Positions 4,981-61,666 of a stretch of 64,000 bases of DNA are shown here, in pieces; within the stretch, counting starts at the first letter, position 1, and the number at the start of each line of letters is the position of its first letter. This DNA is from Leucoraja ocellata (lineage: Eukaryota), in contig JAWMAR010000329.1 of NCBI GenBank assembly GCA_036785375.1, positions 372,001 through 436,000 of the forward strand, in the 5' to 3' direction. The notes under the pieces were generated by a model, which saw only the letters and a list, made by a program, of their open reading frames with translations, ran no database searches and was not told where the DNA came from. Both the position numbers and the translations under genes were made by a program.

Positions 4981-6767
4981 TGGAACCATCCTATGCTCTC
5001 TAGTCTTTGCATTTCCACACTGGAAAAATGATTCTGACTGTCCACCCTATTTATGCCTCTGATAATTTCATATACTTTTATATTTGAGATCAAGAAGGCT
5101 GAAAACTGTACATGGCTCGATTGTAATCATAAACTGTCTTTCCGCTGACTGACTAGCATGCAACAAAAGCTTTTCACTGTATCTCGGTACACATGCCAAT
5201 AAACTAAACTAACTAACTAACTAAACGTAGATACATGGTGACTCCAGCCATATACATACACCACTATGCTCCCACTTTTTTTTAAGGTAAAGTATTTTTG
5301 TCTATGCCATGTTTGTACTTCCAACAGTAAAGTGCAAATAACTTTTCAATGCACACATTCAATGTACACATATAATTAACCAAGGATAGACACAAAAAGC
5401 CGGAGTAACTTAACATTGGCTTTCTTCTTTAAGTGTATAGCAACTATGAACTGGTCTAGTATTTGGTTTTCAGAAAGATGATTAGCCTGAAGTATTGCCT
5501 TTGTTTCTGTTTCTACATATACTGCCTAGCCTGCCGTGTGTTTCTAACACCACTGTTGATTTTCAATCTTCCTGATCTCAACAAAATGTGCAGAGCTATC
5601 ATGTGCTAAGATGTCATGGGAGATGTCTTGTTTGCCTAAGGCGGCCGCACGTACCACACAGACAGCACACGAGGAGAGGATCGAACCTGGATCTCTGGTG
5701 CCGTGAGGCAGCAGCTCTACCAGCTGCACCACTGTATCAACCACTGGTTAATCTTTCCTTTCATTGCTGCTGCAGGTTAGCATTGGTTGTGGTTTTGCAG
5801 CTCACTCTTTATGATAATTATTTATGTTAACGATTTAGATGTGAACGTACGTGCCATGGTCAGTATGTTTGCTGATAGATTTACATCCTGGCTAACATTA
5901 TCGGTTACAGAGTCAGGCTACCTTTTCACATTCTTCTACGTGGCTGCTTACTAAGGTAATTTAACCAGATCTCAAGCCTTTGCCGTTGAAATAATGGGTA
6001 ACTGAATCTGTTAAAGGAGACAGAATGTGCTGGCATTTCAACATGCTGTACCCAATGAAATGCTGCATTGTAAACTTGCACTGGCAATTGTTCGTTGAGT
6101 TTCCAACCACCTACCTGTTTGAATCACACCAAGCTATTCTCATATATCTCCCAGAATTCAGATACAGAGCAGGGTATTATTCCAGTTGAATAGACAGCCA
6201 ACAACACTTAAGAAGTTCAACACCATTGAGAACAAAGAAACTACTGATATTTTCTTATTCATATTTCCAGATGTGAGCACCACTGGTATTTATTGCCTAT
6301 CACTTATTGCTCTTGAAAAGATGGTGGTGAGCTTTGTCCTTGAACTGTTGAAGCTCTTTTGGAGCATTGGCATCCCCTCTACCATCCCTCCCTCCTCATT
6401 AATCCCTCCCTCTTCCATCAATATATCTCTGCTTCTACCGTAGTATTTCCCAAACATGCAATGATGCCACACGAAACTTGCACTCAAAGTAACACATCAC
6501 CCTGACTTGGAAATGTATTATTCCTTCATCAGCATTTGACCTAAGCCTGGAGGAAAGTAAAACAGTCATGGAGTGAACATGCACACTCCACACAGTAAGC
6601 ACAAAATGTCGAGATCAATCCTACATTGATTGAATTTTAAGGCAGAGGACCTACCTTTTGCGCCATTGGACCTTATGAGACATCCTGTAATGGCTCAAGA
6701 AGGCTAGTCTACACCAAATTGGGTTGGCAAGTAAATACTCATCTACCACCAATACTTATATCATAAG

Positions 6768-7060
6768 ATAAACACAAAATACTGGAGTAACTAAGCGGGA
6801 CACTTGGCATCTCTGGATAGAAGGAATGGGTGACGTTTCGGATTGAGACCCTTCTTCAGACTGTGAGAAGACTGACTCTAAGTCTGAAGAAGGGCCTCAA
6901 CATCACAGTCTGAAGACGGGTCTCGACCTCTCAGTCTGAAGAAGGGTCTCGACCCAAAATGTCACCCATTGCTTCTATCTAGAGATGCTGCCAGTCCCAT
7001 TGAGTTACTCTAGCATTTTGTGTCTATCCTCGGGATAAACCAGTCTCTGCAGTTCCTTAC
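6768..7060. mobile_element. Inverted pair of Penelope-derived terminal repeats with hammerhead motifs
   Basis: Left arm 6768-6862 is the reverse complement of right arm 6933-7028; the spacer holds two extra partial ctgaaga motifs. Confidence 0.85.
6826..6862 (-). ncRNA. Minimal type I hammerhead ribozyme motif (best-preserved core)
   Basis: Minus strand GU-CUGAAGA-A-GGGUC-UC-AAUCC-GAAA-CGUC-ACCC: both core boxes, stem II with one mismatch, GUC cleavage triplet; stem I short. Confidence 0.6.
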
Positions 7061-10060: not shown

Positions 10061-13000
10061 TTTAAATACATTACTTCACTCACAGGATTGCAAATCTGGA
10101 GCTTTCCATGTCAAAGTCCCAAAGAATTGTAAATATTCAGTCACTAAGAATGTTCATGATTTAAAACATTAGATCATTGGGCATTGTGAGGATTAAGACG
10201 TATGGAGATTGATCAGAAAGGCAAACTTTGTACTGGATTATCTTGTTCTAATTGAACAGAGGAGTTTCTTTTTTAGGCTGTTTAGCCGGCTCTTACTCCA
10301 GTTTGCTATGTTCTTATGTTCTTTTTAAAAATGGTTTTATTAAAATTATATCCCAGCAGTAATCAAACCTTTCAGCAGAGAAGAGGGAGAAATCAATAAA
10401 TTAGCAACAATAAAAATGTAGGCATTTATACAGCTAAGTCTGGTTATTCCATTTTCTCAGTATCCAATAAACATATTATATGCAGTAACTATTGATGGAA
10501 TATATACTTTACTTCAATTTAATGGTTTATGATATCAATAAAGTGCTTTATTGTGTGATTTTACTGCACTTTCAGAAATTGATAGCAATCCTCCTGTGGA
10601 ATAAGACTGATGAGTGTTTTTTATAAGCTGAGCAGTTAAAGGTGAGCCAAATAGATTGGGAAGCTTAAAATCTGGTCTGAGTGAGCTGAAAAAAAGAAAT
10701 ATCAGCTGGCGTCTTCTTTCCCAGAATTGAAGGGAAAACATTTCCTGAGAGTTTCTATTCCTAACCATGTGTCACAGTGCACGTGTGGCTATCAATTGGG
10801 TGCAGGAGTGGGAATCTGTTTGTTTCCTAAACCCGCATTTGCCATTACCTTAGCTCTGATTCAAACTATCTCAGTACTCAAGACACAGACCTGACCTCCC
10901 AGTCATTGTCTTCTGACCTTCTGACGGGTGTCCAGATTAGAACAGCTTCTTCCCAACTGCTATCCGACTTCTGAATCAATTATCCCCTTTACACCCCATT
11001 CCCGGAGGGAATTTGTACTATTTACTCTGAGCTTTATATGAGCAAAGAATTTCATTGCACTTTGATGTTTATGACAATAAACTAATCTAATCTAAACCCG
11101 TCAAACGGCAACATCTAGGGAACACCATTATCCGACAGCTCTCTGTGATTATTTGAGATTTTAGTTATTGTCAGTTGTGTTTCTGATATGTGAAAAAAAA
11201 AATCAGTAGAAGACATTACTTTAGGACAAGGGGCATCAGTAAGTCTCAATGTAAACTAGTCTAATTTAGTCACCTTGTCCCTATCATACTACTCCTGAAG
11301 ACTTTGTTGGAGACCTCAAATCTCAATCTCTTATCTCATTGCCACCTCGACCCTCAATGGCAATCCTCAGCGATAATCCTGGGATCTGTGCCTATTTTTT
11401 TGTCAACCTTTGGTCATGATTCTTTGTTTCTGAACCTCAGCCTGTGACTAAACTGATGACACTGAACCAGGTCTGGTTAACTCCTGGGCAGCACATTTTT
11501 GTTGTTGAAATGGTCGTGGGCACTCTGCAGCATAGCATATTTTGTACACAAAATGAAATAGAGATGAAGGAAATTTCAAGACCAGACATATTTTATCACT
11601 TGGCACAGCAAACATGGTCATATGCATATTTGTTATGTCTATCAATATATGTGTACTTGGAGTTAGCCCTGACAACACTAATAGTGTCGTAGAGTCATAC
11701 AGCAATAAAACAGGCCCTTCAGCCCTACTTGCCCACATTGACCGACATGTCCCATCTACACTAGTCCCAGCTGCCTGCCTAATTTGGGTGTACAAATGTA
11801 AAATTCAATTGGGGAATTCAGTTGGCAAGAGATAAACAATTTTCATTTCTGGAGGAGACTTCCAAAGTTCTTTGCTAGTTAAGTCACTGTGCTGAAACAT
11901 GGGAGGCATTCATAAATACACAGCCTTCATCTAGAGAAAAAAAAAAGAAAGAAAATCGCATCCTAACAAAAGGTCTGGCTGGTAATGTCATTCCTCATGT
12001 AAAAAGTGACAAATTGAGAACCACGCACAGGAAACCTTTGGAATAGTGCAAGAGGCATCTAGGGGCAGCAAAGGAGCAATTAAGGCAGCTTTCATGATGC
12101 AAGAACACAAATGATTTGATGGGCTTTTCTCAGCCAGATTTATCTCATGATTTTATGAATTGACTTTATCGTCAAATTGTGATCCGCCACGAAGTGCAGC
12201 AGTTCCACATCCATCATTACTTGTTAGCTGTTTTTTTGGCAAACTGCTGAGCCTCATTGTGTAGCCACATTGTGCGATTCTCTAAATGATACTTGAAATG
12301 AGAAAAAGGTCTTTCAGATACGTAGCTGCCTGCCACATTCCACAATATAATACCATAGTTGTTATACTGACATTACATCACCTCCCACCTATCAGGAGAG
12401 TATAAATGAGGAAGAATACAGTACACAGTACAGCACTGGGAAATTGTATCCACATTTTGGAAAATGCTTAATAACCAATTCAGAATCTTCCAACCTGAAA
12501 CTATCCACTAAAAAGGAGGCATTTTTTTGAAAATCCCACAAATTAAATATTTACATATTTAAATAGTTTATATGAATCACTAACAGCACCTGTGGCCTGT
12601 TGAGTAAATAACGATCCAGATGTACCATTAACAGAAGTTAGATCAGTTGTCCTGGTATTCAACAAGCATTTATCTCATGCATTTAATTCAGAAAAATATC
12701 CCCAAGCACTCGATACAAAAATGAAGGGAAGTGAATGCTCGGTTGAAAGAGAGATTATGAGGAGTGACCAGCATTTCTCCATGAGATACAGTTTGAGCAA
12801 TTACTTTCTGAATAGGGGCATATGGAGGTATCTCCACAGGATAAAAGTGTTGAAGTCACGGGGAATGTAATGGGAGGGAAATGTATGAGTGGAACTGAGT
12901 TTGGAGTAGAGGGATGGGTTGCAAGCTTGGTGAGAGAGATCTCATCTTATATACTTATAATAATACAGAAAAAAAGGCCATTCGGGCAATCAGATCCATG

Positions 13001-13410: not shown

Positions 13411-16400
13411 CCTTAGATTATGTGGGTCCCCCAGCAGGTGTTCAATAATCCAATATGATCAGTCCATTCAGTTACAGACCATCCACTTATCAATCCCCCA
13501 GAAACACTTCTACAACAAACGGACTTAAGCTGCTACTCCGATTCAAATACCAAAGCTACAGTTATTATAAATGGATCATATCAGTAAAAACGATTAATTT
13601 GAAAAAAAAATGAAAATAAAAAGAATTAAGTATGATAACTAAATTAAATCAAAATTTGTAAATTCTATGAAATTATCTTTCTCCCTCACTGTTAATACTC
13701 TCCATTGAATTGGAGTTATTTAATCTATACTAAACAAGAGGTCCACAGTTGCTGAGTTGGCAACTGTGCTCAACTGTACGGAGGTTCAGGACATCAATGC
13801 TTTCGCACTTCCATGACCCTGCATAGTTATTAAGTTCTGCCTCTTACTGGAAATTTCAGCTACAAAATTCTGTTTTTCTTGCTACATTTTCTGTCTGATC
13901 GAATCAGTATATCTGGTATTTTCTGTTATTATTGCAGATTTTCACCACCTGTTGTACTTTACATCAGTATCCAGTTGATGTGCTATACTGGTCTCTGTGT
14001 TCCCAGACTGGGGAACAAAATCAGTCAGGGCTCTATTCTTAATCCCACTACAGTGAGCTGAGTAGACAGTGCGCATTGACGAATAGTGAACATAAAACAT
14101 AATTGAAACTGGTTAGGATGCTTCATTGTTTGAACAGCCTGCCTACACTCAATATCACTCAATATCTAGCCTTGAGCATAAGAAATGTTTCACTCAAATG
14201 TCCTTGTGCCATGTGTGTTGGTAAACAGTTCCATCAAGGGTCATTACCAAGAATCAGTTCTGTTCCTCCCAGCACCACCACTCCCTCTACCCCAATCCCA
14301 CCCAACCCCCTAGATGTGGCATAAAAGGCTCGATTTATACACTGTAAATGGCTCGATTGTAATCATGTATTGCCCTTCCGCTGACGTGTTAACAAGTAAC
14401 AAAAACGTTTCATTGTACCTCAGTACACGTGACAATAAACTGAACTAAACTGACAAAATAAAGCAGCACAACCAGAGAGACAGCTGCCAACCATTTCTGT
14501 TTGGGTGTGTTCCTTGTACTGACATATGAAATTCCCTGTATTGTATGAGAAGCCCATCTTCCTGCATAATTGAACACCCTACCTTAAAAGATCAAGTCTC
14601 AATCTCAAGTTAAATGGATCCTGGAAGCTACTCTCCCAGAGTCACCTGGCAGATCCACATACCTTGGGCTCTGTGCTCATTGCTGATGCAGAAATTAATG
14701 AGACCTGAGGTCCATTACAATGAGGCAAAACCAACCCCACCACACTTGACCCTCATGTTTGAAGTGCCATGTTCCAGTGAGGGATTAAATCAGAAAGTAC
14801 CTTGCTCCAAATACAGAAAATGCTGGAAATTCTCAGCTGGGCAGGCACCATACACACAGAGAGAAACAGTCTGGTTGTTTCTGGTCAATGAAGTCAGCTT
14901 TGGCAAAGGCAGTAAGAATCAGTGGAAGGAGGGGAGGAAAACAGGAGTCTGTAATAAGGTTCAAGGACAAAATAATTAAATGACAACAGGATAAAAGTAC
15001 ATAAAGTGGTAATGAAATCAGCAACATTATAGATAGGACACCATTGCTCTATGACTTTGCCCGTTGAATAGTACTAATTTTAATAAATAAACTATTTAAT
15101 ATTGATATGGTGTGATGGTTTGATGGTACTTTCCTTTACAGTAAGGCCAGACAAATGGATATCCTTGTAGTTCCGCAGCAGTAACTTAAGATATATAGAT
15201 GTAACTATGGTTACCATTCTCACCTTACAATGAAACCACACACAACTTCCGATTGCAGAGGCTCAAATTTGTTTTTATAGTCACAGGCGGCAATAGACCC
15301 TGTGCTTTTATTAACTCACATCTAAACACTGTCATTTAATCCACGCCTATGCAAACCACAAATTGCATCCAAGTATAACTTTAAAAAGCATACAATTTGA
15401 CAAGAGTATAACATTTCAAAACCGCACATGCTATCCTGTAGACACCCACTTAATTTCCTTAATTACATCCTATGTCCTGCGTAACTACATTGTTTTCTGG
15501 AACAACATAACCTTCTGGTTTCTAGAGATTCATGGGTATCTCTAAAGCTCTGACTAGTTTTAAACATCTCAGTTTCAAACGGACTAACTAAATCATGCTG
15601 ATTTTCTTTGTTAAGCTATTGAATTGAGTGCCATTTCACCAATCAAGGATTTACAGCATTTTCTGTTTTTTTGTCCGATTTCCAGCACCCGCAGCACTTT
15701 GCTTTAGTTTTCAATGTCTGCCACTGTATTTAGCTTACCTGGTAGGTAAGTTGCTGAGAGCCAAATATGTTTGTCGACACACCATTGCCAGATTGTGTTG
15801 ACCAAATTGTCAAATGATATCGATTTTATCCCGCCCATATAGGCCACCACTGTGGTATTATCAATTTGTAAACGAACATGCAAATGGTGCATATTTGTAC
15901 AATATGCTTTTAAACCATAGAACGTACCCAACATTTCCAAATAGTTTATGCCCAGTGTCTGTAGTAGTGATGATTCTAGATTAGTCCATCTACCACCTGT
16001 GCTGGATATGGTATTAGTTGCTCCCCAGCCTTGAACATTGGCATCTGTTTGTATAGTTAACGTTGGGTTACTGATGATGATAGGGCTGGAACTATGTCAA
16101 ATGTTCTCTATCCACCATTGCAGCTCTGATATAGCTTCAATGGGCAATTTCATGGTTCGGTCAAAATGTCCTGCATGTCGTTTTAACGCTTGCACCTTTG
16201 CTCTTTGTAAGTTTTGATAGTGCAAAGGTCCAAACTGGGTAGCTGGAAATGCTGCTACTATTTTACCAATTACTCTTGCCACTTGTCGGATGGTTGGTCG
16301 ATTGTTAACCATTAATTTGTTACATGTTTGTGCCAATTCTGCTGATTTCTCTTTTGGCAGCGTTACAGACATGTGGACTGAGTTAATTGTGAACCCCAGA

Positions 16401-16866
16401 TAGTCCATAGTCAACTTAGATTTATCTGGATGTATGACGAAACCCAGGGTTTCAAATAAATGTTTAGTAGCTAATACAGCTGAATTAGCTAATTCCATGG
16501 TTTTGCCTATTACTAAAATATCATCAAGATATGCCATGACAATATGTTTTTTGTTTTCTTAATATTGCCAAGGCTGGTTTTAGTATCTTGGTAAACAGTC
16601 TTGGGGATGATGTTAGGACATTAGGCAATGATTTGAACTGCCATAGTTGCCCCATCCAGGTAAATTTTAGGTATCTACGATGATCCTTGTGAATAGGTAC
16701 TGAATAGTAGGCATCTTTTAAATCGATGCTTGCCATAAAGTATCGTTTGGAAATCAGTTGTTTGGCAGTCACAAATGTTTCCATTTTAAAGTGTATATAC
16801 TTAACGAAAGTATTCAATGCAGTTAAGTCAATGATGATGCGACATCCACCATCTTTTTTGGTTTCC

Positions 16867-17880
16867 ATTCCGGAAGTGGCGGCGCTGTGAAACGGCTACG
16901 GCTCGCCTGCAGTCTGTCTGTTTTTACTTTTTTGTGTTGTTTTTTTTTGTCTTGTTCAGTTAAACTTTTGGTTATTAGGTTGTGTTATGTGGGGGGGGGT
17001 CTGAGCTGAGGCCTAATGGCGGAGCTGGCGGCCTCGAACCTGCGACCGACATCGAGGATCCGGAGGTAGAGCCAGCCAGCACTTACCAACGCGAGGCTGG
17101 CCATCTTCGAGCTGCGGCAGCGTTCGGGCAGTGGCTCGACTCGGCGCTCCAGTGAGGGTGGATGGCGCGGGGCTGAGACACTCCTGTGAGGGCGGCCCGG
17201 CTCCCGGCTGGAAGGCGCTCCCGTGTGGGTGGCCCGATGCGGGGCTGAGACACTCCCATGTGGGCGGCCTGGCTCCCGGCTAGAAGGCGCTCCCGTGTGG
17301 GCGGCCTTGCTCCCGGCTGGAAGGCGCTCCCGTGAGGACGGCCCGGCTCCCGGCTGGAAGGCGCTCCCGTGGGGGCGGCCTGGTGCGGGGCTGAGGCGCT
17401 CCCGTGTGGGTGGCCCGGTGCGGGGCGGAGACGGTGCTCCGATGGCTGAGGCGGCGTTCTGGCGGCTGCGACCTGAATCCGAGGCTCGGCTGCGGGCTGG
17501 TGGATGACATCGTCGGGAGCTCGCTGGTCACAGGTTGCTGCCTGTTTTCCAGAGCTCCCGTGGCAACAACTGCATCCGCTGGACTGGAGGGCGGCAGCTT
17601 CGACCACCCCCAGGCCGCGGAGCTTGAACCGCGGGACTGACTTACCATCGCCCGGTGGGGTATCGCCTCAGTGCAGAGGGAGAAGAGAAGGGAAGAGACA
17701 GCAACCCTAAAACTTTTGCCTCCATCACAGTGAGGAGGTGCTTGGTGAACTCACTGTGGTGGATGTTAATTTGTGTTTATTGTGTGTTGTTTATTATTAC
17801 ATGTATGGCTGCAGGCAATGACATTTCGTTCAGACCGAAAGGTCTGAATGACAAATAAAGGATTCAATTCAATTCAATTT
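16867..17880 (+). mobile_element. Non-autonomous composite retroelement (YY1/ETS-like head, GC-rich VNTR, LINE-type 3' hairpin, (ATTCA)n tail), copy 1
   Basis: Starts ccggaagtggcggcgctg, T-rich tract, VNTR, 3' region homologous to 26496-27360, hairpin at 17827-17850, AATAAA and microsatellite tail; inserted in DIRS RT. Confidence 0.8.
17140..17440 (+). repeat. GC-rich minisatellite, ~8 units of 35-37 bp
   Basis: Unit ggcgctcccgtgtgggcggcc followed by either ...tgcggggctga or ...ctcccggctggaa. Confidence 0.9.
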
Positions 17881-17903
17881 AATTTTGGTAAATATATATA
17901 TAT

Positions 17904-18654
17904 AACACAGACATTAACCTCCTACTCAACACATCAAAAACCCATGAACTTATCATCGACCTTAGACGTAAGGCACAACCCAAGACCCCCCTACTCATCT
18001 CCGGTGAACCCATATCCACCATTGACTCATTCAAATTTCTTGGCACTCACATACGCAATAACCTCAAATGGAAAACCAATTCAGATCACATTTATAAAAA
18101 AGCCAACCAAAGACTCCTTTCTCCGTCAGCTCAAGAAGTTCAGAGTGAGGAAACATCTCCTAATCCAATTTTACACAGCCATCATCCAAAGCATGCTCAC
18201 TTCATCAATAACAGTTTGGTACAGCAGTTTAGACACTCACTCCCGTAATAAACTACAGCGCATTGTCAACAAAGCATCCAAAATCATCAGCACTCCCCTC
18301 CCATCAATAGAATCACTCAATCTCAAACGGTCCGTGTCAAGGGTGAAGAAAATCATTTCTGATCCCTCCCACCCAGCTCACCACATCTTCCACCTGCTGC
18401 CCTCAGGGAGGCGCTACAGCTCACTGCTTGCCAAAACATCACGATTTAAAAACAGTCTCTATCCATATGCAATTCGAACTCTGAACTCTCTATTATAATA
18501 TCACAAAGCCACCTTGTGCATGTACTGTATACTGTATGTTGTTTGTGTTTTATGTTTGACGGGAATCAGCTTATTGTGTAACATCCTGTACTGAATATGA
18601 ATTCCACCAGCTTGACTGTGTGGTCATTAAATAATCTTGAATCTTAAATCTTGA
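17904..18654 (+). mobile_element. Rex1/Babar-like LINE 3' fragment nested in DIRS
   Basis: ORF FLRQLKKF...FYTAIIQSMLTSSITVWY...LQRIV...LLPSGRRY...RFKNS; tail (AATCTTG)n. Confidence 0.85.
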
Positions 18655-20419
18655 ATATTTGAAACAAATTCCAAAGGTTCATGTTCAGATTTCTAAATGA
18701 TACCCTTTGTAAGTAACCTCGCCAGTTCTGCTTGTCCCTCTAGTTTTTCTTTTAGTGAGAGGGTAAAACCCCTTTGGGGTGCATGCTGAACTGGTGGCAT
18801 GTTTTCTTGAATAAATTCAATTTTGTATCCTTGAATACTGTTAAGTATATAACTATCAAGTGTGATAGTCCTCCATGCTTCCATGAACAGGTGTAGTCTC
18901 CCCCCCCCCCCCCCCCCCCCCCCCCATCCCCCCGCCTGTTATGTACTGGTAGGAACCAGACCCACTTACCTCCATTGTTATTGGTGGATTTATTTCTTCT
19001 GTTTCTTGTTCTGGTTCTTCGTCGGTCGTGGTGCTGTGTGGGGGTGGCGCATTTTCCATGGGGTCCGCTCTGGGCCCTGTCCTAAAAAAGGCTTCCGGGG
19101 ATGGTGTGCAGACCCCGAGCTTTCACCAGTCCCATGGAATTGACGTAGACTGGTGGATGCAATGGGGTACTGCCGCTTTGGTTGAGTGGTTCTGCTCGTT
19201 CCGGGACCTGCCCCATGAGGCCAAATGCTTTCGATTCCTCATCCAGGTCTTTGACCAGTCAAATCGACAAAGAAGGTAAATACTCTGATATGTGATGGAA
19301 AGGCAATGATAACTTGCTCAATTAATTCAACTCCGAGAATTAAATAAAAACGACATTCTCTTGGTTCAAATACGAGATTTAAAGGGCCTGCGAAGACAGA
19401 GCCAGAAACACTCACCAAAATCTTGATTCCTGGTGAGGTCCCAACAATAATAACATATCCAGTACGCTTGGACAGTTATTGCCATGTAAAATACTGCTGA
19501 AGATTACAATTATAATCAGATACCACTCATCAAACCATAAGAACTTTATGAAAACATTGATCAAAGCGGTGAAAGCTCTGAGTAGTACCAAAGCTTTAAA
19601 ACAAAAAAATGTTGAAGTAAATATTTAACGACAGAAGCAGTTAAATTATTGCCATGTATAGTATCAAAACTTTATAACACTAGAATGAATTAAATAGAAT
19701 GTAGTTCTGGATAAATATTATGCTTTCCGAGTACTCAAAGATACGTCAGAATATCAGTGTTACAATTAAGGATTTTTTCCAGGTTGTCAAACTGACTTGA
19801 CATTAGCAAAGAAATCAAGTCTTCCATGAAACATTTGCATTTTGGGATGCCCATTATGTTTTCTCTGGCATAATAGCTAGATAAATTAAAGCAAGATATA
19901 GCATTTCCACATATCTAATAATGGACTGAGGCCACTGTTGTCTGAAAAAGCCGAAAATTCAGGTTCAAAATAAATGGTTGTATTAACACAAGGCAGTTGA
20001 ATGAATAGTCATACAAACAATAACATACTAATAGGGAAGATTTAGCATTATAAAACGCCCCAATTATCAAACAGAGTTTGAAGCGAAAGCACATAAGGAA
20101 ATATTAGTGTGGATAATTAAAAGCTTTGTCAAAGGGAAAAAGTTATTGTCAAACGAAAAGGGTGGGGAAAAAGCGGAGATGTTGATGGAAAACAATAATT
20201 AACCACTTGGAATGCGAAAATTATTTTCACGGTGTCAGGACATTGAAAGCTGCTTACATCCAATAAAATACCTTTGCAGCCGAAATACCATCTCTCTGCA
20301 CACCCTTGGTATGTTTTAAAATTGCAAAGTTAACTCAGCAGCTAATGTGTATACAACAATTTCCTTATCCAGATCATATCCAGATCATCAGTTTTAATGA
20401 CATTAGTTGAATTGGTAAA

Positions 20420-21470
20420 TAAAAATGCTGGGGAAACTCAGCGGGTGAGGCAGCATCTATGGAGCAAAGGAAATAGGGGAAGTCATTGTTCATACCGCTG
20501 GGGTGTAAACTACCCAACAAAATATGAGGTGCTGCTCCTCCAATTTACGGTGGGCCTCACTCTGGCCATGGAGGAGGCCCAGGACAGAAAGGTCGGATTC
20601 AGAAGGGGAGGGGGAGTTGAAGTACTGAGTCACCGGGAGATCAGGTTGGTTAGTTATTGCGAACCGTGCGGAGGTGTTGGGCTACGTTTGGTCTCACCGA
20701 TGTAGAGCAGCTGACATCTAGAGCAGCTGATGCAATAGATGAGGTTGGAGGAGGTGCAGGTGAACCTTTGCCGCACCTGGAAAGACTGCTTGGATCCTTG
20801 GATGGAGTCAAGGGGGGAGGTAAAGCGACAAGTGTAACATTTCCTGCGGTTGCAAGGGAAAGTGCCAAGAGAGGGGGTGGTTTGGGTGGGAAGGGACAAA
20901 TTGACCAGGGAGGGAGCGGTCGCTGCGGAAAGCAGACAGGGGACAAGATGGGAAGATTTGACCAGTGGTGGGTTCCCTATGGATGTTGCGAAAATGTCGG
21001 AAGATTATTTGTTGTATGTGACGGCTGGTAGGTTGGAAGGTGAGGACAAGGGGGGCTCTGCGAGTGGGGGGGATGGGGAGTGAGAGCAAAGTTACGGGGT
21101 ATAGAAGAGACCCTGGTGAGAGCCTTATCTATAGTAGAACCCCTGTTCCCTAAAGAATGAGGACATCTCCAATGCCCTGGTTTGGACCACCTCATCCTGG
21201 GTGCAGATGCAGCTTAGACGGAGGAATTGGGAGTAGGGGATAGAGTCCTTACAGTGAGCAGGGTGGGAAGAAGTGGGAGTCAGTGGGTTTATAGTAGATG
21301 TCAATCAGTAGCCTGTCACCTGCGATGGAGATAGTGAGGTCTAGAAACGGTGGGAGATGTTGGAAATGGTCCGGTGTATTTGAGTGCAGATGAAGTGGAT
21401 GAAGTCAGTGGTTGTGTGTGGGTGCAGGAGATAGCACCAATGCAGTCATCGATGTAGCCGAGATAGAGTT
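20420..21470 (-). mobile_element. Penelope-like element fragment (RT C-terminus, GIY-YIG endonuclease, terminal repeat)
   Basis: Minus strand YIDDC (~21450), YYKPTDSH, CNRRKCYTC, FTCTSSNLIYCISCSRCQLLYIGETKR, HPSGMN; joined directly to the short aatgctggggaaactcagcggg repeat. Confidence 0.88.
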
Positions 21471-21742
21471 GAATTGGTTGTAGATATCATAATTTGACTA
21501 TGGCAGTGGGATTTTCACAGCATAGGCCCTTGAAAACAAAATATCTAGGAGGAGTGGATACCTTCTTAGATTGCATGTTCCAAATTCAACGACCATCTGG
21601 GTGAAAAAAAAAATCTTCCTTTGATTCCAAGAGTCAAGAGTCAAGAATGTTTTATTGTCATATGCCCCAGATAGAACAATTAATTTCCTACTTGCTGCAG
21701 CACAACAGAATATGTAAACATAGTACAGTGTAAACAATATAA

Positions 21743-21920
21743 NNNNNNNNNNNNNNNNNNNNNNNNNNNNNNNNNNNNNNNNNNNNNNNNNNNNNNNNNN
21801 NNNNNNNNNNNNNNNNNNNNNNNNNNNNNNNNNNNNNNNNNNNNNNNNNNNNNNNNNNNNNNNNNNNNNNNNNNNNNNNNNNNNNNNNNNNNNNNNNNNN
21901 NNNNNNNNNNNNNNNNNNNN
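21743..21920. other. Assembly gap (178 N)
   Basis: Run of N; the left flank 21627-21742 is a minus-strand Rex1-like 3' tail running into the gap. Confidence 1.
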
Positions 21921-21977
21921 AGTTTCTAACTAACTACATTATCAATGCCTTTCATGATTTTACACCCTCAATAGGTA

Positions 21978-22190
21978 GCAAAGAACTGCAGATACTGGTT
22001 TAAACTGAAGATAGACACAAAATGCTGGAGTAACTCAATGGGCCAGGCGGCATTTCTGGGGAGAAGGAATGGGTGACGTGTTGGGTCGAGACCCTTCTTC
22101 AGACTGAAGACCCAAAACGTTCCCCATTCCTTCTCTCCAGAGGTGCTGCATGTCCCGCTGAATTACTCCAGCATTTTGTGTCTACCTTCT
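21978..22190. mobile_element. Inverted pair of Penelope-derived terminal repeats
   Basis: agacacaaaatgctggagtaactca...cttcttcagac / ctgaagacccaaaacgtt...ttactccagcattttgtgtct. Confidence 0.85.
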
Positions 22191-22909
22191 GCCAAATTAA
22201 TCACTGACCTATTCTTTAACGGTCCCCATCCTTTGCCACTGGTCCAGCCTATTCAACCTCCTTCGCCATCTCTCACATGGTAGAGTCTCAGTTTTGTTTC
22301 AAATGCCACATGCAAGGCATCAGGAATGGAATGGGTTTGAATGTTGCTGCTGAGGTGGCTTTGCACAAACTGCTTTAGATCCCCATGCAATATTGTTTTA
22401 ACAAGCCTCGGTTATCCATTGATGCATTTCTAACTTGACATTTTTAAGGCCAGATTCCTGAACTGATCTCCACATGCCTTTCATTTAAACCACTTTCACA
22501 TAAACTGTAGCCAATCATTAACCAAATCCCCATCCTGAAATATTTCACTAAATTGTACTTTAATCCGGAAACTCAGACAGAGGCATAGACCTACCTCTGC
22601 AACCAATGGCAGGTAACGACTGCATCCCTCATAATTACATTAGATCAAACAGCCATTCATCAATACTGAATGAATCACTAATGTTTGACGTTGATAAAGA
22701 TGTTAGTGATTAAATGTAATGGCCTTGGGCAAAGAACAGTTCTCACTTAGACAACCCATTGCGTTAGTCATAAAACCAATTGCATTGTGAGCCACTTACA
22801 GCCAATATGTCTGCTCTGAATTAATAGGACCATCTGGTAAAAAATAGCTTGTATAACTTTGGATGTTAACCCTTTAGAACATGTTGGCTAACTCCAGCAG
22901 AATTGTCAT

Positions 22910-23820
22910 CCTCCTCTCAAAATGCTTGGAACATGATTTTGTTTGATATATCAAGAATCAAATACAAGACTTCATGGCAACAGCCTTGATCGTGCCCTTG
23001 TCACTTGCAATATTGTCCAAGTGAAGGATCACAAGGAGATCCCTGCATTATGATGGCAATGGCCAGCCTATCCTTTCTGTTACTGTCATCAAATTGGCCA
23101 TTAAACGGCAACAGAGGCTGGAGCTCCGATGCAGCAAAATCAGTGTTGAGATTTCAATGACACTGAAATGAAAACTTCAGTTAGTCATCACAGACTGATT
23201 GTCCACAGAGCCTGACGTCAACCATTACCTACACCTGTAAAATGTCTCTGAGCTTCTCTAGCAGAAAATAACAAGAATGATTTGATGAGAATAATCAGGA
23301 AATCCAGGAGCTAATAAATCATTAACATGCAAACTCCTTGGATTGGAAATGCCATCTCTTGTCAAATATAAAGAAAGAGATCTGTAACCACCTAAGAAGA
23401 GATGGTGGATGTAAAGAGCACAGCAATTAGTCAATAACCATGATATGCATGCATTCTTAAGTGATGTCAACACCATCTCTGGCCCACACACATAGGATCT
23501 GCACTGCCAAGAGTCAAGAATGGAGGAGATTTTATCAAAGACAGTGAAAAAGTCAGCAGCATCTGAAAAGAACATCTTAATCAAGAATTTATCTTTCGCA
23601 GCAATGTCCTTGACTCCATTTTACAACACACCATCCACTACAAACTCAGAGCTACGCTGATCTGCCAAGAGGCCATCTAGTAGCTGATAAATAATTAGAT
23701 CCCTGGAGGTCTAATGACAAGCTCCTCCTTAATTCCAAAACCATGATAAAGAAGTACTTCTCGTCTGAATGCATGTCTCATCTCCCTCATCTTAGAAGAC
23801 AAGAACGTATCAGAAGTAAT
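22910..23820 (+). mobile_element. Highly decayed LINE remnant (RTE-like)
   Basis: Patchy resemblance to RTE endonuclease/linker sequence; no intact ORF. Confidence 0.3.
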
Positions 23821-24279
23821 TGTGAAAGAAGGAAACAGGCTCTTGGGTCCAACTCGTCCATGCCAGCCAAGTTGAGCTAGTCCCATTTGCCTGCATTTGA
23901 CCCACATCCGTCTAAATCTTTCCTATCCATGTACCTGTCCACATGTCTTTGAAACGTTGTATTTGTTCCTGGCTCCACCATTTCCTTAGGCCATCAGTCT
24001 TCGTCACGTTGAGTGGTGCAGGCAGCGGTGGGGACCTCATCGGCAATCTGCTTCTGGGTCTGGTCAAGGTGCCGTCAAAGGTTCTGCCTGAGGCATCTGC
24101 CTACCCATTCTCTGAGGAACTTCTTTCCCTAGGTGGCTCAGGAGAGGGAGCATACAGTGTCCACCAGCTCACCAGATGACTTCCAGGAGCATTAGGCATT
24201 GCAGGGGCTGGAGTGCATCCTGGACACAGAATGGTCATGATTTCATTTGCGAATTATGTAAATATTCTGATGAAACTTA

Positions 24280-24750
24280 TCTATATTACTAAAAGTCTGA
24301 TCTTGACCGCTTTTGGCCCACTGTGCTGCAATTTCCGAGAGAACGCCACCACCTACGGCCATCATTTTTGGCCACCTCGATCAGAGCCCACGTCTGCCTT
24401 CCTGGACCAGAGTATTTTTCCCATCGATGAAAAATCAGAGAGAAATTAATGTTTTAATAAAATTCACCATTCTCTCTGCTGCCCCTGCTGGAGGGACTAT
24501 AAAACCAGGAAGTGGTGTGCCTCAATCAGTCTGCAAGATGGAGGTCACTCTGAGCTCTGAATGACACTGAACAAATGTCTACACAACTGTGAGTAAGTAC
24601 CCTTAATGTGGTTTGAAAATGAAAATATGGTTAGTTTGAAGTAAAAAAGCACTGCCTGCAAATGGTTGTTTGGAGGGTTTGGGTTGAAAAGGCATTCTCT
24701 CTCTCCCCACCTCTCTCTCTCCCTATCCAACGGGTCTGCACTTGGTCTAG
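24280..24750 (+). mobile_element. Non-autonomous Helitron
   Basis: 5' TCTATATTACTAAAA, 3' CTAG, inserted between A (24279) and T (24751) with no TSD; weak subterminal ccaa...ttgg hairpin. Confidence 0.72.
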
Positions 24751-26495
24751 TGTAAATATATAAATAAACCCTTTGAAAATTTTTTTTTAATTGGAATGAA
24801 TCATTTGTTTCCAATGGCAACACACACTTCTGACAGCTGATGTAAACCACTGCCAGATGGTTTGATAGTTTTATAAAATGTGACGGATTTTTACCATCAA
24901 TGTTAGTGTACTGGAGATTTAAATATTTTATTTTTACCTTCATGAGTTTTAAATTGTTTAGATGTTGCTTAACAAATCTGACACAGACAAATTAGGCCAA
25001 TCCATTCTGCACATTCCACTTTGTGCTTTGTAAGCAATCCACTGACCTCCCAGTAGTCAGCTCAACCCCAATCCATGAAGCTGCTTCCACCAGGGCTCTA
25101 ACACTGACTTAGTCATAGTCATAGAGTGAGTGACACAGTGTGGAAGCGGGCCCTTCAGCCCAACTTGCCCACACCGGCCAACATGCCCCAGATACACGTC
25201 ACACCTGCCCGCGTTTGGTCCATATCCCTCCAAACCTGCCCTATCCATGTACTTCTGGCTGATGGAAAAGCATCGCAGGAGTAAGGCATCTTTAGCTTTC
25301 CCCAAGGAAGGAGCAACAAAAGCAAAAGTCCAAGTTCACATTTCTATCTTGTTTCGATAGGTAAAATAATGCAAACTACCCCAGAAGCTTCTGATTTTCT
25401 CTCCTCAATATTTGGGCTCCGTGCTACATATACTTTGCACACTCCCTCTGTGATCATCTGTTTTTCAGGTTTCCTCACAAAGTAGTTGATCGGTTATTTA
25501 AGTGGTGAGTGATAGGTTGATGGACACCTGAGAGAGAATAAGTTAGGAGAAGATAAGTAGGGGAATGGGATTGATAGAGGTGCGAGGGATTGCAAATGCT
25601 GGAATCTAGAGCAAGAAAGAGAGCTGCTGGAAGTGCTCAGTGGTGGGAAATTGGCAGTTGATGTTTTGGTCGAGATGATAGGTGGATACAGGTTGGGAGG
25701 GATTGGAGAGAGGTGGGGGAGGCCTCAGTGCCACTACCTCCCCAGTATTTGGTTCCACACATCACCATCCTTATATCAGATTCCAGAATCTGCAGTCTTT
25801 TGTTGTCTCCACTTATCACCTCGCAGCCTCCTTTGCAAGCTCCACCCCATCTGCTGGCTCGAAGGGCCAAATGGCCTCCTCCTGCACATATTTTCTATGT
25901 CTCCCCCAAATCTTTACACTGGCTAATTCCGCTCTTTTCTTTCTGTCTAGATGTTGGTCTTGACCCGAAATGTGGGCTGTTTATATCCCCCACGGATGCT
26001 CCCTAACATGCTGAATTCCCCCAGTTGCAATCCTTTTTTGCAATGGGATTGATAGGATTACTCTGGTGCCTGGCATAAACCCAGTAGCCTGAATGGCCTC
26101 TTCCTATGTCATAAGAAACATGAAAATATAGATCTATGGATTTATATTTCCTGAAGGCAAGTGCAGAACCCTATGTTTCTGAGTAGCCTGATCTGAACTG
26201 ACTTCTGAACAATTTGGCACCCAGCTGGCAAAACACCTACATTTGTTATGGTCCCAGCTCACCATTGGCCTTGATTACTTTGCAGGCATTTCCTCCTTTT
26301 AACACTCAATACATTGTTCAGCTGTGTGACCAAATACACATGGTCTCCTATTTACCCAGTAAAATAATGCACAGCATGTGCATCTGCCACACACTTCTTA
26401 TTCCAGAATCTTGCATTGTGATGCATTAAGGACCACATTATGAATTTTTTTTTTCTCCTGTGCCCTTACTTCATCACCTGGAGCAATGAAATCCT

Positions 26496-27360
26496 CAGAT
26501 TAGATTGGATTAGATTAGATTCCTTTATTGTCATTCAGACCTTTCGGTCTGAACGAAATTTTGTTTCCCTGCAGTCATACATATAATAAAAAATGACAAA
26601 AACACACAATCAACATAAATTTAACATCCACCACAGCGAGTTCACCAAACACCTCCTCACTGTGATGGACGGCAAAATCTTAAAGTCTCTGTCTCTTCCC
26701 TCTTTGTTTGCCCTCTGCGCCGAGGCGATCCAGGCTCCAGATGTTGTGACCCCACCGGGTAATGGTAAATCCCGCGGCTCAGCCGTGGTCCGCGAACGGG
26801 CCGGTTCAAACTCCGCGGGTGGTCGGTGCCGCCGCCACAGCTCCGAAGCCGAGTCGAGTCTCCACTGCCACTGCCGCCGCTACAGCTCCGGGGCCGAGTC
26901 GGGTCTCCGCTGCCGCTGCCGCCGCCACAGCTCCGGGGCCGAGTCGGGTCTCCGCTGCCACTGCCGCCGCTACAGCTCCGGGGCCGAGTCGGATCTCCGC
27001 TGCTGCTGCTGCCGCACCCACAGCTTCGGGGCCGAGTCGGGTCTCCGCTGCCACTGCCGCCACAGCTCCGAGGCCAAGTCGGGTCTCCGCTGCCGCTGCC
27101 ACCGCCACAGTTCCGAGGCCGCCAGCTCCGCCATTATGCCTCGGCGCAGACGGAGACGGGGATGGGGAATACGACAGAAAAAAAGTCGCATCCCCCGAAG
27201 GAAGAGACCAAAACATGTTTCTCCCACCCCACCCACACACATACACAACTTAATAAAACAAAATTAACTAAAACATGATAAAGGAACAAAAAGAAAGAAA
27301 AAAAAAACGGACGGACTGCAGGTGGGCCGCAGCTGTTAAGCCAGCGCCGCCATCTTGGAC
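26496..27360 (-). mobile_element. Non-autonomous composite retroelement, copy 2
   Basis: Minus strand starts caagatggcggcgctgg, T tract, 45-bp VNTR, 3' ~210 bp homologous to 17660-17860 including the identical hairpin (26532-26555), tail (AATCT)n. Confidence 0.8.
26826..27125. repeat. 45-bp GC-rich minisatellite, ~6.5 copies
   Basis: Unit ctccggggccgagtcgggtctccgctgccgctgccgccgccacag starting at 26841, 26886, 26931, 26976, 27024, 27066, 27111. Confidence 0.92.
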
Positions 27361-29231
27361 ATGATGTGTGCCTACAAAGAAGCAGACATAGCTGGAGCCC
27401 ATGAGGGTGCCCATAGCTACGCCTTGGTCTTGGCGGAAGTGGGAGGAGTCAAAGGAGACAGTGCTGCAGATGCTGGTTTACACTGAAGACAGACACAAAT
27501 GCTGGAGTAACTCAGCGGGACCGGCAGCATCTCTGGAGAGAAGGAATGGGTGATGTTTCGGGTCGAGACCCTTCTTCAAGAAATTTAAGTTGCTCTCACC
27601 CTTGGTGTGCTGTTATTCCCAGATATGAGGACATCCAAGTAGGAAAAACTCATCCTTCATTGTAGTACAAGGAATAAAATGTTGGTATATTAGAGTTTGG
27701 CACTCAATACAATGCTAATGAATATGTGTAGCTGCTGAGAAAGTCAGAAGTGTTTTTGCACAGTTCTTGGTTTGTATATATTTTTTATTCTGAATAAAGT
27801 TCATTTTGGGGGATAAAAACTTCGAGTTTGGTGGGGACAACACTCAAACAAGGGAAGGGATATCACCCTAGAGAGTAGCAAGGGTGCTTTGTTTAAAGAT
27901 AGGTGTGAACACCACTGGTTATAACACTATTGAATGTATATAGACACTGAGAGAGGGTGAAGAGTTTTTCCAATTTTTCTTGTTTTGTATATATTTTTTG
28001 TATTTCGAATAAAGTGTATTTTTTTGCAAAATGGTTACTCTCAATTCGTGTAATTCTACAAAAATTCCCAGGATTCTGCTCAATCTACAACGTGGAAAAT
28101 AATTCAGGCAAATATAAGACAACCATTCTTTGCAAAAAAAAAGTGATGTTTCTAAAAGCTATTCTTTTTTAAACTAAGAACTACTGCGAGCATTGAACTA
28201 GTGTTTCAATATAATTCTGCACGTTGTAGGGATGATGACTGTCAAGGAATTCCACAATTCCCGTCTTCAAATGACATTATAATGCGTGGCAACTCATTTA
28301 GTACGAATTGAAGTCCCCTCATGCATGCACTCACTCCCCTCCACCCCAACAGCACAAACTACATAACTAGATGATTGCATACTGTGTACAGGTCCATTTT
28401 ACAGCTCTTTGCTCGTTGTTCAGTTCTATTATGCTGCTGAAGAATAAACTGATTGCTCAACGTCTGTTCCTCATGCACTTTCCTCAGTTCAAAAGAATCC
28501 AACAGACACACTGTTGTTAGCTTGTCAACACTGTGTATCTGATGACAATGCTCCCACACTTTGTTCGGTGCGTCGAATGGGGTTGTCAATTCTGACTCCG
28601 TCTTCTCCTTGGCTTTACCAGGTAAACTCGCGTTGTGGGACAGGGGCTTTACTCTTCCATTTGTGTTTCATCCTAAACTACAAAAACTGAAAGAATGTCA
28701 CACACACATGTGTAAAACATTCTGCACAAACACGAGAGAATGTTTGAATTCCATGTGGTGAAGGGCTTGTCTCATAAATGTACGAGCTTCACTGCAATAA
28801 GTACTAACAAATGTAAACACTGAAAAATCCACCAGTCGAGCGAGCCAAAGATGCAGGTGAAAAATAACGAGGAGGCTTGGCTCAGGCTACGAGTGAGACA
28901 GTGAGGAGAATTTTAACCCTGACCTTTGCATAGATTTAAGCGGTGGCTGGTGGGACTTACAATAAAACCTGTGAATTTGACAGTAAATTTCCAACCGTTA
29001 TTTAACTCTGGAGGAATGTGGGATGAGTGGCCATACGGTTAGGACAAAAGGGTCAACCATTTTAGACATAAATAAAGAAGAATGGTCTTGACCCAAAACG
29101 TCACCCATTCTTTCACTCCAGAGATGCTGCCTATCCTGCGGAGTTACTCCAGCATTTTGTTTAAAATAAAGAAGAATTCCTTCTCTCAGAGGGTTGTGAA
29201 TATTTGGAATGTTCTATTCCAGGCTGCCCCG

Positions 29232-53799: not shown

Positions 53800-54610
53800 A
53801 ATATATGATATTGATATGCCATTTATTGTCACTATACATGTACAGTGAAACTGAAAGCTGCTCGTACTCAGTGCATACATACAATTTAGCACAAAAAACA
53901 AGAAACAGAAAAAACAAAAAACAGAAGGGAGATGGGGGGGGGGGGGGGAATAGGTGCACAAATTCTGCGGCGCTACATACATATATACATATATACAGAT
54001 GGAAGTCCGTGTTGGGCGGTGTAGTCAGTGCATGTGTGAATTTGAATTTATAGTAGATATAATTCTCGGAAAGCAACTATTCCTGAGTCTGTTTGTCCTG
54101 GATTTGATGCACCTATAGCGCCTTCCAGAGGGCAGCAGGTCGAACAGTCCAAACGCAGGATGGGAGCTGTCTTTGATGATATTCTTTGCCCTGCTAAGGC
54201 AGCGGGAGGTGTAGATGTCCATCAGGGAGGGGAGAGGGCAGCCAATGATCCTCTGCGCTGTCCTGGTTACCCTCTGAAGCCTCTCCCTGTCTGCCATGGT
54301 GCAGCTGCGATACCATGCTGTAATGCAGTATGTCAGCAGGCTCTCGATGGACGAGCGGTAGAAGGTCAGCAGCAGGTTAGAGTCCAGGTTGTGCTTCCTG
54401 AGGACCCTCAGGAAGTGCAGCCGCTGCTGAGCCTTCTTGATGACCGCTGTCGTGTTGTCCGTCCAGGAGATGTCAGCCGCGATATGGACGCCGAGAAACC
54501 GGAAGGTGTTGACCCTCTCCACACACTCGCCGTTGATGTGTAGGGGGGCTAAATCGGTGCTGTGCCTCCTGAAGTCGACAATGAGCTCTTTTGTTTTCCT
54601 GGTGTTCAGA
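53800..54610 (-). mobile_element. Rex1/Babar-like LINE 3' fragment, relatively young
   Basis: Uninterrupted ORF LNTRKTKELIVDFRR...FLGVHI...AQQRLHFLR...FYRSSIESLLTYCITAWY...LPSGRRYR; CpGs retained; 3' UTR and (ATATC)n-like tail. Confidence 0.9.
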
Positions 54611-54974
54611 GCCAGTGGATGTAGAAATTTCTCCACACTCCGTCAACTTTGAGAGTTGTCTGAAAGAAATATGGTGCTGGAATGGCTCAACCCAATTGGG
54701 AACTCAACTTTGACATTTTTATGCAGGATTTTTATTCACACTCGTACCTATTTTTCAGTGTAAAACACTCTCAATTGGCATCAACATCAGTGTAAGTCAC
54801 AAAACTCATCACATGTGATTCTTCAAATGTCATCAATCTGAAAGATGACTGTCTTCATCTGCACATTGAACAACCAGTTTTAATTAACATCATTTTCCAC
54901 AAAACCAGATCACTGAACGGAGCAGAGTATTTCCCCTCATTCCTACACTCATCTCTGATCCCCGAGTCCCTCAT

Positions 54975-55325: not shown

Positions 55326-55491
55326 TCGTATCGTCAAGGAAGGAGAGTTCATTCACTTTTTCTGCAACTAACACAAATGGGAAGTGCGGAGATTTGTCTG
55401 CAATGCAAGATTCCTTGGAGCGCAAGGTGCCTGGTGCACATTTGTCAAATTACTGCTTATAGAAACCTGCCTGACAACTACCAGCTGGTAG

Positions 55492-55730
55492 CCACAAATG
55501 CTGGAATAACTCAGCGGGACAAACAGCATCCTGGGAGTGAAGGAATGGGTGACGTTTTGGGTCGAGACTCTTCTTCAGACTGAGAATGACCAGAAAGGAA
55601 GTGTCTGGGTCTGAAGAAGGGTCTCGAACATCACCCATCCATTTTCTCCAGAGATGCTGCCTGTCCCACTGAGTTACTCCAGCATTTGTGTCTATCTTCG
55701 ATTTAAACCAGCACCTGCAGTTCTTTCTTA
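55492..55730. mobile_element. Inverted pair of Penelope-derived terminal repeats
   Basis: Arms ~55492-55581 and ~55606-55697 are reverse complements; both carry ctgaaga motifs. Confidence 0.85.
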
Positions 55731-56769: not shown

Positions 56770-57240
56770 CCTTGTGGGGCGCAGCGAGTGCAGTACAGGG
56801 CCGCCAACAGGCGGGGGCGCTAGAGAACCGGCCATCCTTGACCCCTGACCCGGAAATGTGCCGGCTGTTCCTGGAGACCGGCTCAAGATGGCGGCCGCCT
56901 TTCGCAAGGCGCAGAAATCGGTGCAGCGGGACCACCGGGAGCGGAGCCAGGTGGGGACGGGGACGGGGATGGGGATGGGAAAGGGAAGAATGAGAGGGAG
57001 GCACCGGGCAAGGAGCCGAATAGGCAATGGCTGCGTCTTCAGCGAGCCGGCCCGGGACAGAGCGCATCGTCCACTCAGTGCTCCCGGTGCCCGGGCAGGA
57101 CGTGGCGCCGGCGGTGGCGGCGGCGGCAGCGGCAGCAGGAGCAGCCAAAGATCCTATAGCAGAGGATCTTTGGCAGCAGCAGGAGGAGGAGGAGGAGGCG
57201 CTGTCCACGGGGGGAGATCTTTCCCCTACCGCCACCTGCC
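56770..57240 (+). promoter_or_regulatory. CpG-island promoter of UTP11
   Basis: Sharp rise in GC and CpG; GC box (ggcgggg ~56809), ETS-like ccggaa (~56850), YY1 consensus CAAGATGGCGGC (56884-56895) overlapping the start codon, as is typical of housekeeping ribosome-biogenesis promoters. Confidence 0.8.
56888..56950 (+). CDS. UTP11: UTP11 (U3 snoRNA-associated protein 11, SSU processome), coding exon 1
   Basis: ATG in caagATGG context translates MAAAFRKAQKSVQRDHRERSQ, matching the vertebrate UTP11 N-terminus (MAAAFRKAAKSRQREHRERSQ); ends CAG|GTGGGG; 63 nt, phase 0. Confidence 0.96.
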
Positions 57241-59328: not shown

Positions 59329-59390
59329 CTTGGATTTCGAAAACAACTGGGCTTTTTGGAGAAGAAGAAAGATTACCAGATCCGTGCACA
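59329..59390 (+). CDS. UTP11: UTP11 coding exon 2
   Basis: Acceptor ttttccgtatttttacag|, translates LGFRKQLGFLEKKKDYQIRA(Q), donor CA|GTGAGT; 62 nt, in frame with exon 1; GxLEKKKDY motif of the Utp11 family. Confidence 0.96.
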
Positions 59391-61563: not shown

Positions 61564-61666
61564 AAACTACCATCGCAAACAAAATGTCTTAAAGGCACTA
61601 CGCCAAAAGGCATTAGATAAAAATCCAGATGAATTTTACTTTCGAATGACCAGCAATAAACTCCAG
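61564..61666 (+). CDS. UTP11: UTP11 coding exon 3 (gene continues beyond window)
   Basis: Acceptor tgcttttcag|, translates (Q)[34 protein letters not shown] with the KNPDEFY motif, donor CAG|GTGAGA; 103 nt, phase compatible with exon 2. Confidence 0.96.

Follow-up and report, generated by a model that had tools for sequence, protein, structure and literature searches.

The stretch analysed here (the window) comprises 64,000 nucleotides (nt) of the Leucoraja ocellata genome (assembly GCA_036785375.1, contig JAWMAR010000329.1, positions 372,001 to 436,000 of the forward strand) and holds, besides other repeats and the first exons of a UTP11-like gene, three copies of a non-coding repeat. Copy A occupies 16865-17882 (+), copy B 27358-26496 (-) and copy C ~4990-4390 (-), and the three are collinear members of one multi-copy family. 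The initial annotation had placed them correctly except that A starts at 16865 and C reaches ~4990, and it had described them as an SVA-like (SINE-VNTR-Alu; SINE, short interspersed nuclear element; VNTR, variable number tandem repeat) composite with swappable array cores. Our analysis leads to another reading, which we consider likely: these copies represent a bipartite, non-autonomous long interspersed nuclear element (LINE) of the Rex1 clade that has no open reading frame (ORF) and has a plastic, VNTR-bearing middle.

Self-BLAST of the window revealed that A and B share a head (127 nt, 74% identity, E 2e-10), a post-head motif (44 nt, 89%) and a 3' part (233 nt, 82%, E 5e-55), confirming the head and ~210 bp of 3' sequence previously reported as common to both. 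The extent of B rests on these matches and on alignment. B and C are collinear over the stretch that begins with the head and ends with the post-head motif, and once more in a subterminal block, with block identities of 66-84%. In A the post-head motif spans 16999-17036 (92% A/B, 72% A/C) and ends where the loose ends of RNA reads place a fork between interior types. A subterminal hairpin (17721-17763 in A; z -4.4 in A and -5.5 in B) is retained in all three copies, with its loop deleted in C, and all three such hairpins of the window are accompanied by a head. A block of ~76 nt is absent from A and present in B, in C and in most reads, with 2697 RNA reads containing it. The microsatellite tails differ as had been noted: A ends in (ATTCA)n, B in (AATCT)n and C, which appears to be the older copy, in repeats of a 7-nt unit. 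Observed-to-expected CpG ratios are 0.83, 0.99 and 0.68 in A, B and C against 0.36 in the window, an excess that the youth of the copies could explain by itself.

Insertion of A into a pre-existing site is recorded in sequencing runs, 4 of the 24 listed ones having been chosen for alignment to 16400-18850 at 80% likeness. No run contained half of the words of this stretch, which makes the runs those of relatives, and the aligned pieces were below 200 nt, too short to link head with tail. All four carry a joint from 16864 to 18655 with ~8 letters between, the target being free of both A and the LINE beside it, which fixes the 5' end of A at 16865 and allows a target-site duplication (TSD) of at most 3 nt. 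The target is a reverse transcriptase (RT) fragment at 15704-16864 (-), identified by RVT_1 matches, flank translations and the empty-site joints, which we take from its peptide pattern to be DIRS-like; it is split by A, beyond which it continues first as an 8-nt remnant (17886-17893) and then from 18655 onward. A candidate 7-nt TSD at A was rejected, as the empty site shows the 7-nt match to be native to the target, and no TSD is evident at B or C; L1-type insertions carry duplications of ~6-20 bp. Summed contig depth, which gives no copy number, is highest at the subterminal hairpin, then at the tail, then at the head, and lowest over the array of A, and it drops 30- to 200-fold past 17875 in the four runs. 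Such a profile agrees with a large family that has several interiors and is subject to 5' truncation. No family copy turned up when metagenome contigs, viral contigs and 103 fetched LINE loci were scanned with exact patterns.

The LINE beside A (17894-18654, +) is a separate 5'-truncated Rex1-type element carrying PF09004, with a depth far below that of A. It was evaluated as the partner of A and rejected, being a separate insertion that falls outside the clade of LINEs with A/B-type tails described below. The interval 16865-18654 holds two independent insertions of non-LTR (long terminal repeat) type, 8-13 bp apart in one DIRS-like RT fragment, and the truncated LINE has a possible 5-nt duplication.

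Structural modelling predicts that A and B end in the 3' stem-loop and microsatellite of one Rex1-type LINE lineage. In A this end (17808-17882) consists of a terminal stem-loop at 17826-17851, an AATAAA-like word and (ATTCA)n, and in B (26496-26574, -) of a comparable stem-loop and (AATCT)n; the two hairpins (z -4.1 and -4.2) are built like that of one fetched LINE locus (L024). Comparison material came from the LINE fragments of the window, which carry PF09004 and whose relatives are RT plus PF09004 proteins, mostly teleost; a second protein search gave no match named as cartilaginous fish. With an alignment of 19 such proteins 103 loci were fetched, apparently animal DNA in microbial collections, which we take to belong to the Rex1 clade on the basis of this domain pair rather than of a Repbase reference tree; the viral contigs searched held no related LINE locus. 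An AATAAA-like word plus a 4-7 nt repeat ends 48 of the 76 loci that reach the C-terminus. In a covariance model built from 14 LINE tails chosen for the words of one tail type (T1), whose E-values are rough, seven window matches fell under E 0.03, with B fourth (E 0.0017), A sixth (E 0.016) and the remaining five all LINE tails; the next match stood at E 1.8.

A quick tree of 56 rows (a careful search was left unfinished) placed all 14 T1-tail rows in one 22-row clade (SH-aLRT, the Shimodaira-Hasegawa-like approximate likelihood ratio test, 99), together with elements whose proteins begin with MAAR and with three LINE fragments of the window, the tails of which are related, not identical, to those of A and B. 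A second tail type (T2) accounts for a clade of its own (7 of 7 rows, SH-aLRT 97). The tail of C is the best window match of the T2 model, yet a weak one (E 0.32), and the T2 pattern, drawn up after C had been viewed, occurs once in the window where 0.065 occurrences are expected. No element with the exact upper stem of A and B was found among the fetched or window LINEs.

The heads were previously read as promoters borrowed from housekeeping genes, with the motif types of the UTP11 promoter, and here our comparison points elsewhere: the motif falls where the ORF of full-length Rex1-type LINEs begins. Many full-length ORFs of this type start with MAAR..AAA followed by a hydrophobic stretch (two with K before M), and their DNA starts with ATGGCGGCGC and continues T-rich, as does B. 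The head of B (27300-27358, -) has an ATG at 27353 in a context of TISU (translation initiator of short 5' untranslated region) and YY1 type and a stop after five codons. The head of A (16865-16990, +) has GTG at 16876 in place of ATG, and its T-rich tract matches the hydrophobic N-terminal stretch. In a protein profile of 12 of 34 Rex1-type N-termini, those with an MAA/MAP motif near the start, the head of A scored highest of all sites when the window was read in six frames (E 0.007), with 15.1 bits where the runner-up had 10.1. In pairwise tests against 12 LINE 5' ends, B matched 4 (p<=0.004), A matched 3 and the UTP11 start none at p<0.01, the values for the heads lying between 0.001 and 0.008. 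C matched one of the 12 at p 0.004, marginal after 12 tests, and a head of C that tracks the T2 lineage is only a lead. These comparisons, made with distant relatives, lend moderate evidence to a head that is probably the decayed start of a Rex1 ORF, the LINE 5' end; the Rex1 origin of the head is supported but modestly so.

What the heads have in common with the UTP11-like gene, whose identity is supported by a Pfam Utp11 match on a downstream exon (E 7e-13), is a start codon in a YY1-type context. Both B and the UTP11 start hold the TISU core AAGATGGC, whose ATG is the start codon, and A has GTG and an ETS-like word in place of this core, which is decayed in C. The ETS-like word of UTP11 is CCGGAAAT, 40 nt upstream of its start codon, not CCGGAAGT. 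TISU occurs in ~4% of human genes and is bound by YY1 (PMC2518114); since the motif in UTP11 is likewise a start codon in a TISU core, homology is not needed for the likeness. The head gave no Rfam match to a known RNA or ribozyme.

Tandem Repeats Finder (TRF) confirmed the array units, with a 37-bp unit repeated 6.5-7.4 times in A (17143-17432, in 35-37 bp higher-order units and with a length that varies among copies) and a 45-bp unit repeated 6.6 times in B (26827-27121, -), whereas C has only degenerate, non-tandem repeats. The two arrays do not align with each other (p 0.58-0.91), and to this extent the earlier term "unrelated" holds, but it is too strong, as each resembles family sequence elsewhere: the B unit matches the block that comes after the array of A (p 0.0045), and the A unit matches the interior of C in reverse orientation (p 0.001). 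Five other array-unit comparisons were not significant; after the interior, the three copies again have related blocks. At 17036/17037 the RNA reads divide into 717 with a B-type array and 746 with an A-type interior, and shorter interiors are seen as joints (17037->17326, 17203->17323 and 17269->17444), so the family has two interior subfamilies and varies in array length. Because array units match family-native sequence, expansion in place fits better than import of a cassette, and the arrays probably grew where they stand rather than being swapped in, which the unit matches support, if modestly. This echoes the DNA-level, microhomology-driven remodelling reported for SVA and LAVA (PMC4432496).

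A decayed LINE ORF as interior was rejected, 120 Rex1-type proteins giving no tblastn match inside A, B or C better than E 1.3; nor was there a Pfam match in six frames of the element or a homologue of a B frame. Folding revealed inverted pairs flanking the interior of B (16 nt, 94%; 12 nt, 92%; pair probability 0.97-0.99), in which 5' arms at 27138-27214 could form a long-range stem with 26685-26726. Arm complementarity as strong was reached by 0 of 60 local shuffles in B, 4 in A (marginal) and 19 in C, and the whole RNA folds into a predicted rod in B (z -5.2) and not in C (z -0.4). The rod in B is a lead, not a family property.

On the bipartite Rex1 reading, the element would keep the extreme 5' end of its LINE, the start of a single ORF that in many Rex1-type elements appears to lie in a TISU/YY1-like context, and this retained end would make a plausible internal RNA polymerase II (Pol II) promoter. 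The 3' stem-loop and microsatellite would be retained as well, for recognition by the LINE protein in target-primed reverse transcription. Between them would lie a family-specific body of post-head motif, GC-rich block and subterminal hairpin, with a plastic center in which deletions occur and short native segments, sometimes inverted, may expand to arrays of 35-45 bp and give rise to subfamilies. We infer transcription by Pol II from the head, mobilization in trans by the T1-tail Rex1 lineage and, for C, an exchange of tail. A non-coding Pol II element mobilized by Rex1 had been proposed before, and of that proposal the mobility, the lack of autonomy and of coding capacity, the many copies, the Rex1-type 3' end, the variable interior of GC-rich tandem repeats and the improbability of RNA polymerase III (Pol III) stand.

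Several results weigh against this reading. Linkage of head and tail is directly visible in three copies only, and the autonomous LINE with the same ends that the initial annotation had anticipated was not found among the fetched and window LINEs, a comparison set of distant, teleost-type elements. The training sets were picked for resemblance, the 14 tails by their T1 words and the N-termini, 12 of 34, by an MAA/MAP motif. The head of B enters the protein profile only without composition correction (E 0.012, tied with an unrelated site), and in DNA profiles of the 12 LINE heads B leads the ranking, though at E 1.9-3.1, and A is not among the matches. A tail model stripped of base pairs finds A only at E 0.56, and covariation in the LINE stem is thin, both sides having changed in one of seven pairs. 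The RNA evidence is from one poly(A) run, in which the head is deeply covered. Head bins are split 4062 to 201 by mate direction (20:1), interior bins 71-253 to 24-144, and the adjacent LINE has ~0-4 reads. For a library of the common type the head reads would be sense RNA; their sense is not secure, since the DIRS flank, with its ORF on the other strand, leans the same way at ~5:1. No pile-up of starts was seen at the head in this run, and 969 reads carry a median of 58 loose bases upstream of 16891 (agreement 0.81), which suggests one dominant locus within a longer transcript. These reads do not establish the dispersal of promoters that the initial annotation had proposed.

Much of the same evidence bears on three other explanations. 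The strongest, unlikely in our judgment, is a SINE-like composite in which only the tail is from Rex1, the head being a captured host promoter or first exon with TISU and ETS words, and the interiors being exchanged by recombination or template switching. SVA_F1 acquired an exon of MAST2. The frequency of TISU in human genes given above would make a host source easy to come by, the statistics for a Rex1 head are modest, the A and B arrays do not align and their reads fork at a single point, 17036, and C has a tail of another type. Against this, the likeness of the head runs past the ATG into the alanine-rich, hydrophobic N-terminal stretch of Rex1, the UTP11 start scores below the heads, the array units match native blocks, and no copy mosaic for parts of A and B was observed. 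We give very little credence to a second explanation, a bipartite Rex1 shell that captured a cassette flanked by inverted repeats, akin to a miniature inverted-repeat transposable element or fold-back DNA, with the arrays inside it. The reverse-complementary blocks that flank the interior of B speak for it, A keeps 11 of 13 positions of the inner arm (p 0.03), and the inverted match of the A unit to C would also suit it. C, however, lacks arm complementarity (p 0.35) and in A it is marginal; moreover, the window holds no free-standing cassette, and all three copies have both LINE-like ends.

The third explanation, a Pol III SINE with a hidden tRNA-like promoter whose A box would sit in the post-head motif and whose decayed B box would follow the interior, we regard as the least probable of all. 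Scanned with the standard A- and B-box motifs, A and B do contain an A-box-like 12-mer (at 17017 and 27133) within the best-conserved motif, and B has a one-mismatch B-box-like word at 26811, so that the absence of tRNA boxes reported before is right for the exact B box, which occurs in no copy, and for tRNA matches, and needs qualifying for the 12-mer. Neither word exceeds chance, with 0.2-0.3 and ~3 occurrences expected in each copy, respectively; they lie more than 300 nt apart, and runs of four or more T precede and follow, beginning within ~60 nt of the 5' end. ARAGORN and Rfam found no tRNA or other small RNA, one Rfam scan giving four chance-level matches (E 3.6-5.3). A tRNA SINE mobilized by Rex1 is listed for Nematostella (PMC3747384). 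Given the T runs and the lack of a B box, transcription by Pol III is unlikely. As a separate observation, a second ATG in a YY1-like context overlaps the A-box-like word in the best-conserved internal motif (17013-17028; 27137-27122).

Returning to the Rex1-derived reading, the closest known systems are the ORF-less bipartite LINEs (RIME/Ingi, RTESINE and Bov-A/RTE, Vingi and R2 derivatives; PMC5786205), which like the family described here are non-coding and have a microsatellite tail. Their ends are LINE-derived and they are presumed to be transcribed by Pol II, features that our family is likely to share; tail exchange is described for SINEs related to them (PMC5786205). The family differs in that its parent appears to be Rex1 and in its body of 400-800 nt, of non-LINE appearance and with variable arrays. 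The available text of PMC5786205 names only four source clades, RTE, Ingi, Vingi and R2, and does not mention Rex, and the 2020 follow-up (PMC7245038) gives, in its available text, RTE cases only. Rex1/Babar LINEs (PMC6274825; PMC13343379) have an oligonucleotide tail after the 3' region, and the ends of our copies appear to match those of fetched full-length elements, but A, B and C have no endonuclease or RT coding sequence between their ends. The highest Rex1 coverage in rays, ray-teleost movement of Rex1 and the lack of an ORF1 are reported in PMC13343379, whose available sections do not mention non-autonomous forms; PMC6274825, PMC4455052 and PMC4350176 supply general Rex1 and naming facts.

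The comparison with SVA, LAVA, PVA and FVA (PMC6139936; PMC4432496) holds for the non-autonomous non-LTR character and for a central GC-rich array of 30-50 bp units that varies in length and between lineages. It fails for the composition: our copies have no hexamer domain (none by TRF), no Alu-like domain (no Rfam match of signal recognition particle/7SL type), and no domain derived from an endogenous retrovirus. They also lack a poly(A) tail and a clear TSD, and at both ends they look LINE-derived. Further differences are a likely partner that is a stringent, 3'-recognizing Rex1 and not L1, and a unit that is wholly different between subfamilies. Of the TISU element (PMC2518114), the head of B shares, in sequence, the core with its ATG start. 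The open literature that we searched, which includes neither subscription articles and supplements nor the Repbase and Dfam libraries, gave no description of a Rex1-derived family of this kind, and the family could well exist as an uncurated library entry.

If the bipartite reading is true, ORF-less bipartite elements would have Rex1 as a source besides RTE, Ingi, Vingi and R2, where Kojima 2018 (PMC5786205) leaves open why only some LINE clades produce them. It would also provide a vertebrate case outside hominoids of arrays evolving within a non-autonomous retroelement, to be compared with SVA VNTR evolution, and would suggest that single-ORF Rex1 elements carry, at their 5' end, a compact signal that combines promoter and start. 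A bolder version, which we hold to be doubtful, is a non-primate VNTR composite that arose independently from Rex1, whose RNA would be a rod with conserved arms and a loop tolerating any GC-rich array, whose tail would have been swapped between two Rex1 lineages, and whose TISU/YY1-type head would have spread Pol II promoters rich in CpG to tens of thousands of sites. Annotation can be misled by such copies, since they resemble CpG islands and TISU promoters.

Other Rex1-type sequences were encountered along the way. Short Rex1-type tails with microsatellites and no upstream RT match lie at 11034-11086, 14392-14444, 5150-5203 and 21651-21700, and represent either copies truncated almost completely from the 5' side or members of additional non-autonomous families; the likeness between 5105-5225 and 14341-14462 is 80%. 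At 54028-54642 (-) a Rex1-type C-terminal fragment encodes protein 79-81% identical to elements from cichlid and medaka entries, a likeness that would be in line with the reported ray-teleost transfer. Full-length Rex1-type ORFs (P0017, P0029, P0054, P0056, P0085 and P0087) have, ahead of the endonuclease, a short hydrophobic N-terminus that resembles a signal peptide. Twenty of the fetched loci (L001-L018, L022 and L023) are from bacterial genome records with Rex1-type LINEs and tails, one record giving ten loci, an indication that the assemblies contain DNA of animal hosts.

Elsewhere in the window, the first three exons of the UTP11-like gene (+) lie at 56889-56951, ~59330-59390 and 61568-61666, with the Pfam Utp11 match on the third and the start codon in its TISU/YY1 context. 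In the first intron, GGC- and GGA-rich runs flank a short imperfect palindrome (57146-57174), which may be a transposon footprint. The host is rich in CR1-, Rex1-, DIRS- and Penelope-like repeats, and a very abundant repeat of ~90-130 nt, often in inverted pairs, occurs at ~20 sites in 2460-63100 (e.g., 6765-7058, 21980-22189, 27456-27578 and 55487-55726), which we take to be a Penelope-like 3' fragment.

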